26,339 nucleotides of DNA, taken from contig JAFGKX010000138.1 of assembly GCA_016928375.1 (NCBI GenBank), positions 1 through 26,339 on the forward strand, read 5' to 3'. The notes beneath the pieces were generated by a model. That model was given only the letters and a program-made list of their open reading frames with translations. It did no database searches and had not been told where the DNA came from. Shown here one piece after another: positions 2,812-9,990 of this stretch (its first letter is position 1; each line of letters opens with the position of its first letter). Origin of the DNA: Candidatus Omnitrophota bacterium (GTDB lineage: Bacteria; Omnitrophota; Gorgyraeia; JABMRG01; JAFGKX01). Both the position numbers and the translations under genes were made by a program.

Positions 2812-3108
2812 ATGCCGACATACGAATACAGATGCGATAAATGCAAAAAAACATTCGAGGTTTTCCAAAGCATAAAAGCAAAACCCATAAATAAATGCCC
2901 TGCCTGCTCTTCGCCGGTTAGAAAGCTTATCAGCGCGGGAGGCGGTATTTTATTCAAAGGTTCAGGTTTTTATACAACAGATTATCGAAGCAAACAATAT
3001 AAGGAAAAGCAAAGCAAGGAAAAATCCGGCAGTATAACCTGTCCAAAAACAGGCCTGCCTGCCGATAGGCATGGAAAATCCGCGGATTGCTCATCATGCA
3101 AAGGATAA
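2812..3108 (+). CDS. FmdB-family zinc-ribbon protein (putative regulator) with Cys-containing C-terminal tail
   Basis: MPTYEYRCxxC...CPAC zinc ribbon followed by the family-typical FKGSGFYTTDY segment. Confidence 0.9.
   Translation: MPTYEYRCDKCKKTFEVFQSIKAKPINKCPACSSPVRKLISAGGGILFKGSGFYTTDYRSKQYKEKQSKEKSGSITCPKTGLPADRHGKSADCSSCKG
3054..3074. repeat. 21-nt palindromic element, in-frame within the FmdB-family gene
   Basis: CCTGCCTGCCGATAGGCATGG. The first 11 nt are identical to the intergenic copy at 6014-6034. Both derive from the perfect palindrome CCTGCCTGCCGGCAGGCAGG. Confidence 0.75.
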
Positions 3109-4480: not shown

Positions 4481-5122
4481 ATGATTGAAGCCGTTTATGA
4501 TAATATAAAGAAGGCAATATTTGCCGGAAACATTCCTGAAATTCCCACCCTGGTACGCCAGGCCTTATCAGATAAAGCTTCACCGGAAGACATATTAAAT
4601 AAAGGCCTTATTGCGGGTATGGCAGTTGTGGGTGAGAAGTTCAAGGCCAATGAGATATATGTCCCGGAAGTGCTTATTTCCGCAAAGGCTATGCACGCCG
4701 GCCTGGATGTATTAAAGCCATTTCTGGAAAAAGCCGGAGTTGCCTCAAAAGGAAACATTGTAATAGGTACTGTCAAGGGAGACCTGCACGATATAGGGAA
4801 AAACCTTGTATCTATGATGTTTAAAGGCGCGGGTTTTTCTGTAACAGACTTGGGTATAGATGTTCCGCCTGAAAAGTTTATAGATGAAGCTGTCAGGAGC
4901 AAAGCGCAGGTCATGGCGATGTCAAGCCTTCTTACCACTTCCATGCCTTCCATGAAAGCGACAATGGACCTGCTGAAAAAAAGAGGCCTTGTTGGTAAAA
5001 TAAAAACAATAATCGGCGGCGCTCCGGTAACACAGAAATACGCCGATGAAATACAAGCAGACGGATATGCGGACAACGCTTCCTCTGCCGTAGATAAAGC
5101 AAAGGAGTTGTTGGGATTGTAA
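4481..5122 (+). CDS. Stand-alone cobalamin-binding corrinoid protein (MtaC/MttC/MetH B12 module type)
   Basis: Four-helix cap domain (LIAGMAVVGEKF...YVPEVL). Base-off/His-on motif GDLHDIGKN (DxHxxG), followed by SSLLTT and IIGGAPV. Confidence 0.93.
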   Translation: MIEAVYDNIKKAIFAGNIPEIPTLVRQALSDKASPEDILNKGLIAGMAVVGEKFKANEIYVPEVLISAKAMHAGLDVLKPFLEKAGVASKGNIVIGTVKGDLHDIGKNLVSMMFKGAGFSVTDLGIDVPPEKFIDEAVRSKAQVMAMSSLLTTSMPSMKATMDLLKKRGLVGKIKTIIGGAPVTQKYADEIQADGYADNASSAVDKAKELLGL

Positions 5123-5979
5123 TGGCTATATTCGGAAAACCTAAATACACGATAGTAAAGCCTAAAAAATTCAAGCAGCAGAGGAAAAAAGATATACCGG
5201 ACGGCCTATGGACAAAGTGCGAAGACTGCGGCGAAATAATCTACAATAAAACTCTTGAAGAAAATCTCAAAGTCTGCCCTAAGTGCAATTACCATTTTAT
5301 AATAAACGCCTATGACCGCGTAGCCATGCTTACGGATAAAGGCACTTTCAATGAACTGGACAAGGATATGTCTTCAGGCGATCCGCTTGAATTTGCAGGG
5401 CCTAAGACTTATAAAGAAAAGATAAAACAAGACCAGGAAATAACCGGTATGAAAGAAGCCGCGATATACGGCACAGGGGAAATAGACGGTAAAAAAATAG
5501 TTTTGGTAGTGACTGATTCCAGGTTTATCATGGGTTCTATGGGTTCGGTAGTAGGCGAGAAAATAACCAGGGCTATTGAACTGGCCACAGAAAAGAAAAT
5601 ACCGGTTATCATCGTATCCGGCTCCGGCGGCGGCGCCCGTATGTATGAGGGCATATTTTCCCTTATGCAGATGGCCAAAACTTCTGCCGCACTGTCAAAA
5701 TTAAATAAAAGCGGCAATATGTTCATATCCGTGCTTACGCATCCTACAATGGCAGGTATTCTGGCAAGTTTCGCGTCCTTAGGCGATATCATTATGGCAG
5801 AGCCTAAGGCGCTAATAGGTTTTACAGGGCCGAGGGTAATAGAGCAGACCATAAAGCAGAAACTGCCTGAAGGGTTTCAGCGTTCGGAATTTTTGCTTGA
5901 ACACGGTTTAATAGATATGATTGTTCCTAGGATTCACATGAAAGAAACAATATCCAAACTTATCGGATATTTAGCGTAG
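5122..5979 (+). CDS. accD: Acetyl-CoA carboxylase carboxyltransferase beta subunit
   Basis: GLWTKCxxC-x15-CPKC zinc finger, FIMGSMGSVVGEKI, SGGGARMYEG, IGFTGPRVIEQT, FQRSEFLLEHG. TAATG overlap with the upstream gene. Confidence 0.97.
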   Translation: MAIFGKPKYTIVKPKKFKQQRKKDIPDGLWTKCEDCGEIIYNKTLEENLKVCPKCNYHFIINAYDRVAMLTDKGTFNELDKDMSSGDPLEFAGPKTYKEKIKQDQEITGMKEAAIYGTGEIDGKKIVLVVTDSRFIMGSMGSVVGEKITRAIELATEKKIPVIIVSGSGGGARMYEGIFSLMQMAKTSAALSKLNKSGNMFISVLTHPTMAGILASFASLGDIIMAEPKALIGFTGPRVIEQTIKQKLPEGFQRSEFLLEHGLIDMIVPRIHMKETISKLIGYLA

Positions 5980-5980
5980 C

Positions 5981-6053
5981 CCCTCGCTAATAATAAGTCC
6001 TCGCACTTGCTCGCCTGCCTGCCGGCAAGGCAGGGACTTAAGTAATGCTCGGG
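5981..6053. repeat. Three-layer nested palindromic element
   Basis: Outer arms CCC-TC-GC (5981-5987) / GC-TC-GGG (6047-6053). Inner TAAGTCC-TC-GC-actt-GC-TC-G...GGACTTA (5994-6040). A 21-nt palindrome sits in the inner right arm. Confidence 0.7.
6014..6034. repeat. 21-nt near-perfect palindrome (CCTGCC family)
   Basis: CCTGCCTGCCGGCAAGGCAGG, which is the perfect 20-nt palindrome plus one extra A. Confidence 0.85.
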
Positions 6054-6054
6054 A

Positions 6055-6077
6055 CAAAATTTGTAAAACAAATTTTG
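6055..6077. promoter_or_regulatory. AT-rich perfect inverted repeat abutting the ribosome-binding site (operator-like)
   Basis: CAAAATTTGT-aaa-ACAAATTTTG. Its last base is the first G of the Shine-Dalgarno GGAGG (6077-6081) of the ABC ATPase gene. Confidence 0.5.
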
Positions 6078-6088
6078 GAGGCTTAAAA

Positions 6089-7192
6089 ATGGCACAGGTT
6101 AGCTTGCGTAACGTTAGCAAGATGTTTACGCCGAATTCATACGCGGTAAAAGATTTTAATCTCGGCATAGAAAACAAAGAATTTCTTGTCCTGGTAGGGC
6201 CTTCCGGATGCGGAAAATCCACGACGCTTAGGATGATAGCGGGGTTAGAAGAAATTTCTTCGGGAGAGATTTATATAGGCGACAGGTTAGTGAACGATAT
6301 TCCCCCAAAGGACAGAAACATTGCCATGGTATTCCAGAATTACGCGCTTTATCCGCATATGACTGTTTACGAGAATATGGCATTCGGGCTTAAATTAAGA
6401 AGATTGCCTAAACAGGAAATAGATCAGAGGGTAAGAGACGCTGCCGAGGTGCTTAGTATTACCAAGCACCTTAATAAGCGCCCGAAAGAACTCTCCGGAG
6501 GCGAAAGGCAAAGGGTCGCGGTTGGAAGAGCCATAGTCAGAAAGCCTCTGGTGTTTTTATTTGATGAGCCTTTAAGCAACCTGGATGCAAAAATGCGCGT
6601 TCAGATGAGAACAGAGATCAACAAGCTTCATATAAAACTTCAGACAACCATGATATACGTAACACACGACCAGGTAGAGGCCATGACCATGGGCACCAGG
6701 ATAGTTGTTATGAAGGACGGTATAATACAACAGATAGACGACCCGATAACTCTTTACGATAATCCCACCAACAAATTCGTAGCAGGATTTATAGGCTCTC
6801 CGCCGATGAATTTCATGAACGGGCTGCTGATAAAGAAAGACGGAAAATTCCATTTTAATGAAGGCAATTTTTCTGTCAGGGTAAACGATGATATGAGGGA
6901 TAGCCTTGCCCCGCATCTGGACAAAGAAGTTATTTTCGGAATAAGGCCCGAAGATATATATGACAGGTTGTTTGCCCAGGGCGCTTCCGAAGATAACGTA
7001 ATCACCTCCACCTGTGAAGTATATGAACCCATGGGCGCGGAGGTATTCTTACACCTTAACAGCGGTAAACACACGTTTATCGCGAGAGTAGGCGGCCACG
7101 ACAGGCCTGCTGTCAATCAGGACCTTGAGATGGTGCTCAACATGAGTAAAGCTCATTTCTTCAATGCTAAAACAGAAAAGGTAATCATATAA
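6089..7192 (+). CDS. Carbohydrate ABC importer ATP-binding subunit (MalK/UgpC/MsmX family)
   Basis: Walker A GPSGCGKST, VFQNYALYPHMTV, signature LSGGERQRVA, Walker B FLFDEPLSNLD, H-loop YVTHDQ, FVAGFIGSPPMNF and C-terminal TOBE region. SD GGAGG at 6077-6081. Confidence 0.96.
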   Translation: MAQVSLRNVSKMFTPNSYAVKDFNLGIENKEFLVLVGPSGCGKSTTLRMIAGLEEISSGEIYIGDRLVNDIPPKDRNIAMVFQNYALYPHMTVYENMAFGLKLRRLPKQEIDQRVRDAAEVLSITKHLNKRPKELSGGERQRVAVGRAIVRKPLVFLFDEPLSNLDAKMRVQMRTEINKLHIKLQTTMIYVTHDQVEAMTMGTRIVVMKDGIIQQIDDPITLYDNPTNKFVAGFIGSPPMNFMNGLLIKKDGKFHFNEGNFSVRVNDDMRDSLAPHLDKEVIFGIRPEDIYDRLFAQGASEDNVITSTCEVYEPMGAEVFLHLNSGKHTFIARVGGHDRPAVNQDLEMVLNMSKAHFFNAKTEKVII

Positions 7193-7251
7193 ATTTCCGC
7201 CGAAGGCGGATTCGCCTGCGGCGGAAAAAATTTAGCCTCCGGCGGAAATTT
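7191..7251. repeat. Cluster of three 15-nt palindromic units within 11-bp terminal inverted repeats; may act as terminator
   Basis: Units TCCGCC-gaa-GGCGGA (7196-7210), TTCGCC-tgc-GGCGGA (7211-7225) and TTAGCC-tcc-GGCGGA (7232-7246). Outer AAATTTCCGCC (7191-7201) / GGCGGAAATTT (7241-7251). T-rich run downstream. Confidence 0.8.
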
Positions 7252-8650: not shown

Positions 8651-9990
8651 TATCGATAGTTTCAATTGTTTTTATTTATACCGTTTCACTGCTTGCGGCA
8701 AACTATACGAAAAATTATTATTTTATTTTTAACCTATGCGTTATACCCCTTATAGTAAGCGGGTATTTTTTCAGCGAATTCAACAGTTTGCTTCTTGTTT
8801 CATTCTGCTGCATTTTAAATTTATCTTTTATATTCATAGAAAACGCCTCGTATGGGGCTTTTCAGAATATATTTTTACTGCTGACCTGCGTTTCGCTGTC
8901 AACTGTGATGAAAAAGGATTTTAACGGCATTAAAATACGCAAAGAAGATGAGCTCAAAACAATAGATGCCACTCTTGCATCTTTGAGGCAGGAGGCTGTA
9001 AGGGTAAAGAATTCCAGGACTATACTGGAGCATAAATCTGCTGAGATAGGTAAACTTTACCACAGCGCAAAAAAAATGGCGTCATGTTCCGGGCTCGAAG
9101 ACCTGCTGAATACTATGCGCGATATTATAGCCGATTCGCTTAAATTCAAAAAATGTGAGCTTATAACCGTTTATTATGCGCAGGACAGCGTTAAAATAGA
9201 TAAGATATATCAGATAACGAAGGAAAAAATAACGCAAGTAAACATGGTGGATTACGAAGAGGGGCTGCTTAAACTAATGCTGCGCAGAAAACAGCACCTT
9301 GTGATAGATGGCAAACAAGGCAGCGCCAACACTGAAGATTTTGCGTTTCCGGAATATCTAAATACCTTTGCGGCGTTTCCTATAATGTCGGGTGAAAAAA
9401 CAAACGCAATCCTGGCCATAGAGGAATTTGACACAGAACAAAAAGATTTATTCGCTGTTATAGCAAACCAATTTTCCATGGCCTTAGAACGCGCGAGGTT
9501 GTATGAGCTGGTGCAGGAGCTTGCCATTACTGACGGGTTAACCGGTGTATTTGTAAGAAGGCACATGCTTCAACGCCTGGACGAAGAGCTTGTAAGAGCG
9601 GCCCATTTTAATACGCGAGTATCTCTGCTTATGATAGATATAGATGATTTCAAAAAATACAACGATAAACACGGGCATTTAAAAGGGGATGTCTTGCTGA
9701 AAGAAGCAGCTGCTATACTTAAAAATGGCATAAGAGAAATAGATATAATAGGCAGATACGGAGGAGAAGAATTCTGCCTGGTGTTTCCCGATACTGATTC
9801 TAAAGGCGCGGAATTTGTCGCAAACAGGTTAAGGGAAAGCGTAAAGAGTATAGATGCAACAATTAGTGTTGGAATATCGGCATATCCGCACGATGCGGGC
9901 AACGTATCTCAGCTCATAGAGAGAGCGGATAAGATGCTTTATAAGGCAAAGCAATCCGGTAAAGACAAGGTATGTATATATGAAAAATAA
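8638..9990 (+). CDS. Membrane-anchored GAF-GGDEF diguanylate cyclase (RxxD I-site present)
   Basis: Same architecture as the upstream gene. AITDGLTG, MIDIDDFKKYNDKHGHLKGD, REID (9733-9744) five residues before GGEEF (9760-9774). 13-nt overlap with the upstream gene. Confidence 0.93.
   Translation: MRQLISIVSIVFIYTVSLLAANYTKNYYFIFNLCVIPLIVSGYFFSEFNSLLLVSFCCILNLSFIFIENASYGAFQNIFLLLTCVSLSTVMKKDFNGIKIRKEDELKTIDATLASLRQEAVRVKNSRTILEHKSAEIGKLYHSAKKMASCSGLEDLLNTMRDIIADSLKFKKCELITVYYAQDSVKIDKIYQITKEKITQVNMVDYEEGLLKLMLRRKQHLVIDGKQGSANTEDFAFPEYLNTFAAFPIMSGEKTNAILAIEEFDTEQKDLFAVIANQFSMALERARLYELVQELAITDGLTGVFVRRHMLQRLDEELVRAAHFNTRVSLLMIDIDDFKKYNDKHGHLKGDVLLKEAAAILKNGIREIDIIGRYGGEEFCLVFPDTDSKGAEFVANRLRESVKSIDATISVGISAYPHDAGNVSQLIERADKMLYKAKQSGKDKVCIYEK

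Follow-up and report, generated by a model that had tools for sequence, protein, structure and literature searches.

Nested hairpin-forming repeats between accD and an ABC transporter ATPase gene of a Candidatus Omnitrophota genome, probably assembled by successive insertions

Results

The accD-ATPase spacer

In this study, a 26,339-nt window of DNA from a Candidatus Omnitrophota bacterium was analyzed, with the spacer between an accD-like gene and the gene of a MalK-type ABC transporter ATPase as the main subject. The window is contig C40 of genome G000 (1.24 Mb, 161 contigs, 41.6% GC, 90% complete); C-numbers below are contigs of this genome, and other G-numbers are other sampled genomes. 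In the open reading frame (ORF) listing, the accD-like gene for a carboxyltransferase beta subunit occupies 5122-5979 on the forward strand and ends with the stop codon TAG at 5977-5979; it matches Pfam Carboxyl_trans and Zn_ribbon_ACC, and its closest relatives are found in Candidatus Omnitrophota metagenome-assembled genomes (MAGs). The ATPase gene (6089-7192, forward strand) matches ABC_tran and OB_MalK. A first-pass annotation had described nested palindromes in the spacer; beyond these, the entire spacer, including a third, AT-rich hairpin, is inserted repeat directly 5' of the ribosome-binding site. The evidence below indicates that the spacer probably consists of layered non-coding repeats, each able to form hairpins, that were inserted one after another.

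The repeat filling the spacer is a copy of a family named A here (5979-6076, forward strand; nhmmer E = 5e-17; 79.3 bits with covariance model R1). Without its insert it is about 79 nt long and consists of a two-tier rod followed by the AT-rich hairpin. The 5' arm of the outer helix at 5979-5987 (G, a mismatched C, CCC, unpaired TC, GC) pairs with the 3' arm at 6047-6055 (GC, unpaired TC, GGG, A, C), and helix 1 is supported by covariation. The first-pass annotation had placed the outer arms at 5981-5987 (CCCTCGC) and 6047-6053 (GCTCGGG), and the sequence reads exactly so; one further pair, G5979-C6055, lies outside them. The inner hairpin was also described correctly: TAAGTCC, TC and GC of the 5' arm, the ACTT loop, and then GC, the second unpaired TC and G of the 3' arm lie at 5994-6013, and the rest of the 3' arm, GACTTA, resumes at 6035-6040. 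It was displaced by a CCTGCC palindrome of 21 nt, which takes up exactly 6014-6034 and belongs to a second family, B. This is the 21-nt variant of family B, a perfect 20-nt palindrome with an extra A at 6027/6028. The third hairpin at 6056-6076 is AT-rich and carries the loop TAAAA in place of the usual CTTCG; its helix is supported by covariation and by predicted folds. The Shine-Dalgarno sequence GGAGG of the ATPase gene (6077-6081) lies outside the repeat and is native, as judged from the sister comparisons at rplL, argG and fba described below. All these features are on the forward strand.

Structure and covariation of family A

Six uninterrupted copies were used to build a profile, which gave 39 nhmmer matches in G000; a covariance model gave 38, corresponding to about 38 copies. 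The outer helix of the family is GYCCC/GGGAC with a TC/TC internal loop and a GC/GC step. The inner part begins with a symmetric internal loop and continues as a helix in which a TC/TC loop and a GC/GC step occur again before the terminal ACYT loop, and the AT-rich hairpin forms a separate third part. Over 20 aligned copies, 94.8% of cells were paired, compared with 21-50% in slid controls. Compensatory changes occurred at 17 of 25 pairs, a number reached by none of 500 shuffles, with 7 of 9 pairs affected in the inner hairpin and 7 of 9 in helix 3. The inner stem alternates between GTCC/GGAC, ATCC/GGAT, ATGC/GCAT and ATAC/GTAT, and both TC/TC loops are unchanged in 19 of the 20 copies. Copies of A, and of the simple solitary units (U) described below, start with GYCCC and copies of B with CCTGCC; CTCG is conserved in both arms. 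Three architectures were found: an outer-only form, a 65-nt form with stacked TC/TC loops, and the long form. The short copy at C46 is explained by a deletion between direct GCTCGC repeats.

Such strong structural covariation, and the persistence of the family across the class, where the covariance model found it in 20 of 41 sampled genomes, would be consistent with a selected cis-acting RNA leader, acting as a processing site, a 5' stabilizer or a translation enhancer. Copies would then have been recruited for an expression benefit rather than by selfish spread, and B would merely lengthen the stem. The logic resembles that of phage T7, where repeated RNase III sites lie between the genes. 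The details of the helices speak against a leader. G.T and A.C mismatches were equally frequent (11 each in the 20 copies), so that there is no excess of G.U; pairing without strand specificity fits selection on DNA hairpins better than selection on one RNA strand. Moreover, the third-hairpin loop is inverted in some copies (CGAAG for CTTCG), and no Rfam 15 family matched family A above its gathering score, the sole match being FourU (13.8 bits, E = 4.6), for which the threshold is 60 bits. Together with the genomic distribution considered below, this makes an RNA leader an unlikely explanation.

Two further functional readings were rejected. For an intrinsic terminator, no U run follows either hairpin: ACAAAATTT comes after the rod, and GGAGG after the AT hairpin. 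For a promoter, inspection found no sigma-70-like -35/-10 pair of workable spacing, and at tRNA genes the element touches the mature 5' end.

Insertion of family B in G000

Family B occurs in G000 as 16 exact copies, seven of the 21-mer and nine of the perfect 20-mer, and none appeared in shuffles of the window. Many near variants and solo half-sites were also found. The half-sites are frequent in G000 but none were seen to bracket a gene-sized segment, and the idea that B represents the two ends of a larger insertion sequence brought together was therefore rejected.

The clearest evidence of insertion comes from the inner hairpin of family A. At one and the same junction, six hosts are uninterrupted and five carry the exact 21-mer; in ATGC-subtype copies the junction holds the 20-mer twice and a decayed version once. 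Composites of B in A at this point were also found in G002 and G003, one of them in the short form. The first-pass annotation had stated that deletion of 6014-6034 restores the hairpin sequence. The deletion yields a 26-mer that matches C126 and C8 with 1-2 mismatches, and relatives with the ATCC stem occur at four further sites. Empty hosts, solitary copies in unrelated contexts and a recurrent landing point together support the claim that the 21-mer is a separate family placed into a pre-existing hairpin. The same annotation had called for at least two successive insertions into pre-existing hairpins. The entry of B into the inner hairpin of A is one of them; the other, with the inner hairpin as a copy of the outer, is less well supported, as discussed below.

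Other sites in G000 show the same behavior. On C121, an intact tRNA-Arg gene can be compared with a duplicated 5' fragment in which the 20-mer sits exactly between D-loop and D-stem, with no duplication. In the window itself, a zinc-ribbon (FmdB-type; Pfam Zn_ribbon_8) gene contains a degenerate copy of B in frame (3054-3074, forward strand), translated as seven codons, GLPADRH. These seven residues are missing exactly in three same-family orthologs, and two same-order orthologs differ in length there. In two other hairpin families, too, B interrupts the 3' arm, and three copies lie between an AT hairpin or A-run and the GAGG or GAGT of a ribosome-binding site. The right flank of the insert usually begins with GA or GG, and no target duplication surrounds B in G000. 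The recurrent landing points are the loop-side edge or the inside of the 3' arm of hairpins, and positions 5' of GA/GG.

Compared over 54 positions, the C40 rod shows 3 differences from two non-composites and 4-5 from other composites, while B is identical in all composites (21/21). The composites are thus not one another's closest relatives, which together with the identity of B suggests either repeated insertion at a hot spot or strong constraint on B.

Some copies show additional layers. A family A copy at C119:480-680 (L246) has B in its inner hairpin and, as a fourth nesting level, a further stretch of about 48 nt inserted into the outer 3' arm, and C135:1498-1660 is apparently layered in the same way. 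On C121, the region 8700-9420 (L243) contains a GIY-YIG-like ORF, named by eye, between the intact tRNA-Arg(tct) gene and the 52-nt duplicate; the duplicate consists of the tRNA upstream region and 5' part and carries the B 20-mer. This locus looks like an integrated element with a partial tRNA copy.

The composite need not fold as it is drawn. A single long hairpin is favored over the nested fold both as RNA (-38.6 versus -23.8 kcal/mol) and as DNA (-19.8 versus -10.6 kcal/mol). In the lowest-energy fold, a 47-nt imperfect hairpin, the right half of B pairs with the left arm and loop of the host. The nested drawing therefore describes ancestry and not necessarily the fold. In each of the five 21-mer hosts, the loop region is of the CTTGC version, complementary to GCAAG of the 21-mer, and two of three hosts of the 20-mer have CCTG, which pairs with CAGG. 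This complementarity could be a sign of co-adaptation or of target choice.

Family B in other genomes and viral contigs

Beyond G000, exact 20/21-mers of B were found in 105 of 301 sampled Omnitrophota genomes, representing 72 of 207 genera; copy numbers ranged from 0 to 51 per genome, and a reversed control of the pattern had no match in the 301 genomes. Exact B was also present in five of 201 sampled genomes of a second phylum, that of a Thermoguttaceae MAG, and in 35 IMG/VR viral stretches with a GC content of 38-68%. In two viral tRNA-Met sequences B lies in the variable loop, and in an unrelated viral tRNA-like sequence it occupies the D-arm junction also used in C121. Among the genes of a viral contig carrying six copies, there was a weak match to a phage adaptor and no transposase. 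The copy census bearing on the first-pass proposal thus found B solitary in unrelated contexts, genomes and viral contigs; for the CTCG-type units it found solitary simple units of the CCC/GGG type and no solitary inner-type unit. A literature search found the B sequence string in no searchable paper, and it found no paper on Omnitrophota repeats.

This distribution bears on two other explanations. Palindromes are prone to replication errors such as template switching and quasi-palindrome correction, and the flipped third-hairpin loop and the deletion in the C46 copy are what such errors might leave behind; the palindromes could then have been made in place, with no transfer between loci. Local error cannot be the source of exact 20/21-nt copies at unrelated loci in more than 100 genomes, two phyla and viral contigs, and we consider an in-place origin extremely improbable, though such errors may account for the small variants. 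Alternatively, B may be a conserved protein-binding or structural palindrome, similar to an operator, that is kept by host selection and is not mobile. Its letter-perfect conservation across a phylum would fit, as would its identity in all composites although the host copies differ by 6-11%. Its occurrence is nevertheless patchy and multi-copy, with the range of copy numbers given above; it is found in coding sequence as well as in tRNA fragments, in heptamer arrays and within other repeats; it is missing at orthologous sites of sister genomes; and it is present in GC-rich viral contigs. A fixed operator is accordingly a very improbable reading.

Placement of family A

About two-thirds of the family A matches are followed by GGAG and, 6-10 nt further on, by the start codon of a long ORF. 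Among the downstream genes, Pfam confirmed those of HU, L7/L12, class II aldolase, GlnA, ArgG, GcvH and lumazine synthase, and further genes were named by eye only. Six copies in G000 adjoin tRNA genes. Two are at mature 5' ends in sense orientation, and the other four, members of a diverged subfamily, are in antisense orientation and follow the 3' CCA without a gap, so that the flanking TGGAG is the complement of the tRNA's CTCCA. Both tRNA contexts were found again in other genomes. On the bottom strand, CTCC or CACC precedes A at Shine-Dalgarno and tRNA 3' sites, and CCGC, CAGC or CGCC at tRNA 5' sites.

Sister genomes show that the element has been inserted at several of these places. The accD-ATPase synteny is conserved in five relatives (accD 73-81% identical), and A and B are absent from all five spacers, which are 13, 20, 35, 66 and 115 nt long; the first-pass annotation had suggested this comparison as a way to look for simpler ancestral states. 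Across the accD, rplL, glnA, fba and argG loci of the five relatives, family A matched at one of 22 loci, upstream of a glnA paralog. In the empty/filled pairs at rplL, argG and fba, A lies immediately 5' of a shared stretch from GGAG(G) to ATG. As sisters without the repeat have the same stretch, the Shine-Dalgarno sequence is native and marks the landing site. No target duplication was seen beside A at four empty/filled loci, and family A has no terminal inverted repeats. A conserved TATAAT box lies upstream of the copy at fba, which places A inside the 5' untranslated region (UTR). The three same-family genomes held 17, 25 and 19 copies of A, and two distant genomes held 34 and 39. Its position in 5' UTRs and intercistronic gaps implies that A is transcribed, and secondary effects on mRNA may follow.

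This placement is a further argument for the RNA leader mentioned above: the element occupies a fixed spot, 6-10 nt plus the Shine-Dalgarno sequence before start codons, is always co-oriented with the gene, lies at fba in the 5' UTR behind a conserved -10 box, and precedes genes for HU, L7/L12, class II aldolase, GlnA, Amt, ferredoxin and GcvH. Its positions are nevertheless not conserved among sister genera, as the single match in 22 orthologous loci shows. In addition, the diverged subfamily stands antisense directly behind tRNA 3' ends in several genomes, and B is found within coding sequence, tRNA fragments and phage-like contigs.

Three side observations concern these spacers and the assembly. 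The 10-mer GTAAAACAAA from the loop region of the third hairpin (6060-6072 of the window) also occurs in the 20-nt accD-ATPase spacer of G002 (L233), either by chance in AT-rich sequence or as a remnant of the ancestral spacer. The spacers of G001 and G003 (L234, L235) carry short repeats of their own, both direct and inverted, namely TAGCGTT twice and GTACCGTTA paired with TAACGGTAC; the accD-ATPase gap seems to be a recurrent landing place of small repeats. ARAGORN found only 24 tRNA genes in this genome rated 90% complete, and several contigs begin or end within copies of A or B, so these repeats seem to break the assembly near tRNA loci.

Origin of the rod and other repeat families

The first-pass annotation had regarded the inner hairpin as a copy of the outer one. 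In such a self-nesting origin, a CTCG-type unit (stem, TC/TC loop, GC pair) was inserted into the loop of a like unit. The TC/TC signature is invariant in both tiers. Solitary simple units (U) of the CCC/GGG type with 3-4-nt loops exist outside family A, two of which (C84, C132) have their own 3' hairpin, Shine-Dalgarno sequence and start codon. Outer-only forms of A were found at C42 in G000 and at L224 in G030, and a simple CTCG-type unit is nested in repeat family D at five loci. Against these points, units with an inner-type stem (TCC/GGA or TGC/GCA) were never found standing alone outside family A, and the 65-nt form (G001, G002, G003, G008, G012) stacks the TC/TC loops without linkers. 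The difference between the 65-nt and the long form consists of symmetric 8-9-nt blocks on both arms and not of one contiguous insert. Self-nesting is possible, though we lean against it. The layout of outer plus inner helix is standard in the roughly 38 copies and in class relatives, and thus does not reflect an event at this locus; as the architecture is common to the class, any self-nesting is ancient and untraceable here.

Other repeats of the genome are layered as well. Family D is a composite repeat (AGATTGCTTCG ... CTCGCAATGACGG) on C19, C148, C106, C141, C2 and C159 (L244, L245) with interchangeable inner modules, among them the simple CTCG-type unit and, in two copies, the B 21-mer. 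Family C, of the form CCGCC-N3-GGCGG, forms a palindrome cluster in the window at 7191-7251 (forward strand). It has 32 sites genome-wide, compared with 0-1 in shuffles, many of them head-to-tail doublets. One copy lies inside an A inner hairpin on C71, and B splits the 3' arm of two family C copies (C13, C99).

Search for a candidate enzyme

Three RAYT-like genes were found in G000; they match PF01797 and score 83.8, 78.4 and 63.8 bits with NCBIfam REP_Tyr_transpos (cut-off 80). Two of them, C57:3490-4056 (L001) and C99:4502-4984 (L002), are flanked by a CTAACCAGGTTAG-type palindrome and a 35-nt inverted repeat pair, respectively. These are candidate cognate repetitive extragenic palindromic (REP) sequences, unrelated to A or B. 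Genes of the Y1 type occur in 36 of 41 relatives of the class and are thus near-universal, so their presence alone does not discriminate. Homologs of the C76 gene were found in 10 of 17 genomes with at least eight B copies and in 54 of 283 others (Fisher p = 0.0006 from a table compiled by hand, uncorrected for relatedness). This is a loose statistical association between the C76-type gene and high B copy number.

Discussion

The comparisons at this locus reveal separate repeat families, insertion without duplication, and turnover at the genus level. In the proposed order of events, a family A element of about 79 nt first entered the gap that separates the stop codon of accD from the native Shine-Dalgarno sequence belonging to the ATPase gene, as the empty sister sites show. 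The 21-nt B then entered the 3' arm of the inner hairpin with no target duplication, to give a product that can refold into a longer hairpin. Both A and B may have been moved in trans by an enzyme acting on single-stranded, folded DNA, with insertion points set by hairpin geometry and a short G-rich sequence, 5' of GGAG, GAG or GAC. HUH/Y1 (RAYT-like) transposases might be the most plausible enzyme class. The rod itself may possibly derive from an ancient landing of one CTCG-type hairpin unit in the loop of another.

A bolder proposal is that B, a 20-nt palindrome, is itself the mobile unit and travels within genomes, from one phylum to another and via phages, by means of an enzyme that reads hairpin junctions, with A as a second substrate of the same or similar machinery, directed to tRNA ends and to positions immediately before ribosome-binding sites. 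We put this forward tentatively and regard it, taken as a whole, as rather doubtful. If true, it would represent a mode of transposition for DNA shorter than 25 nt that is explained by no described transposase family.

Several observations weigh against the stepwise insertion scheme set out first. No enzyme was tied to family A or B: none of the three RAYT-like genes in G000 is flanked by A, U or B, the one on C76 having a mere 11-nt B-like core upstream and those on C57 and C99 other palindromes. No B-like sequence was found within 600-1500 nt of 30 RAYT loci in relatives or of 16 C76-type loci in B-rich genomes, and the B carriers G025 and G027 had no Y1 match. Empty/filled polymorphism at the population level was not seen in four public runs, covered as assembled contigs only, which break inside the repeat; in the single metatranscriptome, the spacer had no coverage. 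The constant position of A by the ribosome-binding site, before genes such as those of HU, L7/L12, FBA and GlnA, also fits a selected RNA function. Finally, 17 of 73 distinct B copies of other genomes have direct-repeat flanks of 6-8 nt, all within tandem heptamer arrays. In relatives and viral contigs, B lies in phase inside such arrays and so acquires 7-nt direct-repeat flanks, as compared with 0 of 14 copies in G000; these flanks could reflect a different, duplicating mechanism or only in-phase targeting.

For annotation, it is relevant that in many Omnitrophota family A occupies the spacers right before ribosome-binding sites and next to tRNA genes, and it may influence the expression of abundant proteins. 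The presence of one invariant 20-mer in more than 100 genomes, a second phylum and phage-like contigs makes both phyletic profiling in search of the enzyme and simple oligonucleotide biochemistry feasible.

Among known systems, the hairpin repeats of Neisseria and enterobacteria are an obvious comparison for family A. Correia and ERIC elements are long-hairpin repeats of 70-150 nt between genes that are co-transcribed and can alter mRNA processing, and they have terminal inverted repeats and target duplications. Like Correia/NEMIS and ERIC elements, which are named in PMC3116915, family A is non-coding, folds into hairpins and lies in 5' UTRs and intercistronic gaps. Unlike them, and unlike classical miniature inverted-repeat transposable elements (MITEs) driven by DDE enzymes, it lacks terminal inverted repeats and target duplication, and unlike Correia and ERIC it is placed precisely 5' of GGAG and at tRNA ends. 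In this it resembles elements derived from IS200/IS605, which have neither feature, carry hairpins at both ends and insert by a short specific sequence. Family A shares the missing terminal repeats and duplications and the hairpins at both ends. A bottom-strand CTCC/CACC is seen at its Shine-Dalgarno and tRNA 3' sites, with a different sequence at tRNA 5' sites, and no parent of the IS200/IS605 type was found, as no Y1 gene in G000 is bounded by A-type ends. Rickettsia palindromic elements are 100-150 nt long. The B-derived 21-nt copy translated in frame in the zinc-ribbon gene is similar to these, whereas B is only 20-21 nt long and mostly non-coding here.

The U units, families B and C and the tiers of A also resemble REP sequences (imperfect palindromes of 20-40 nt) and REPINs, which are associated with RAYT transposases (Bertels and Rainey 2011, PMC3116915), in being short, mostly extragenic, highly repeated non-coding palindromes, with hairpins kept by compensatory change and RAYT-like genes in the same genome. 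In contrast to REP-RAYT systems, neither A nor U nor B flanks the RAYT-like genes of this genome, and the hairpin foot carries no 5' tetranucleotide of the GTAG or CGTC type. Family A, with three hairpins and a fixed place by the ribosome-binding site, and B, a perfect palindrome without a spacer, also differ from REPs and REPINs. Since the defining features of REP-RAYT systems and MITEs are absent, the families described here work like those systems and are not members of them. A passage of PMC3116915 points, through its references 41 and 42, to the insertion of IS1397 into palindromic units and to REP sequences as targets of insertion sequences. As in such bacterial interspersed mosaic elements (BIMEs), hairpin repeats serve as preferred landing sites of other mobile DNA and layered structures result; the incoming element here is a 20-nt palindrome, whereas there it is a full insertion sequence with a transposase gene.

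The closest likeness of family B is to the small dispersed repeats (SDRs) of filamentous cyanobacteria, which one passage of PMC2884548 describes as 'some 20 bp long ... might be mobile'. B is likewise dispersed, of non-coding size (20/21 nt) and potentially hairpin-forming, with 16 exact copies; it occurs inside other repeats and hairpins, for which empty counterparts exist at further sites. Of 73 distinct copies in relatives and viral contigs, 17 lie in heptamer arrays. The cyanobacterial SDRs studied by Elhai et al. in 2008 (Genome Res 18:1484) are reportedly about 20-27 nt long, hairpin-forming, nested and associated with heptamer arrays, with mobility inferred from empty and filled sites. 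B differs in belonging to another phylum, as far as can be judged in its sequence, and in being exact across that phylum and also in a second phylum and viral contigs, and in G000 it sits in the 3' arms of hairpin repeats and not in heptamer arrays. Ever since the description of REP sequences and cyanobacterial SDRs, it has been an open question how repeats as small as about 20 nt spread. The present locus, taken with its relatives, offers unusually clean material on that question, as exact empty/filled pairs exist for a hairpin repeat, for the D-arm of a tRNA and for a coding sequence, and one landing point recurs within a defined hairpin.

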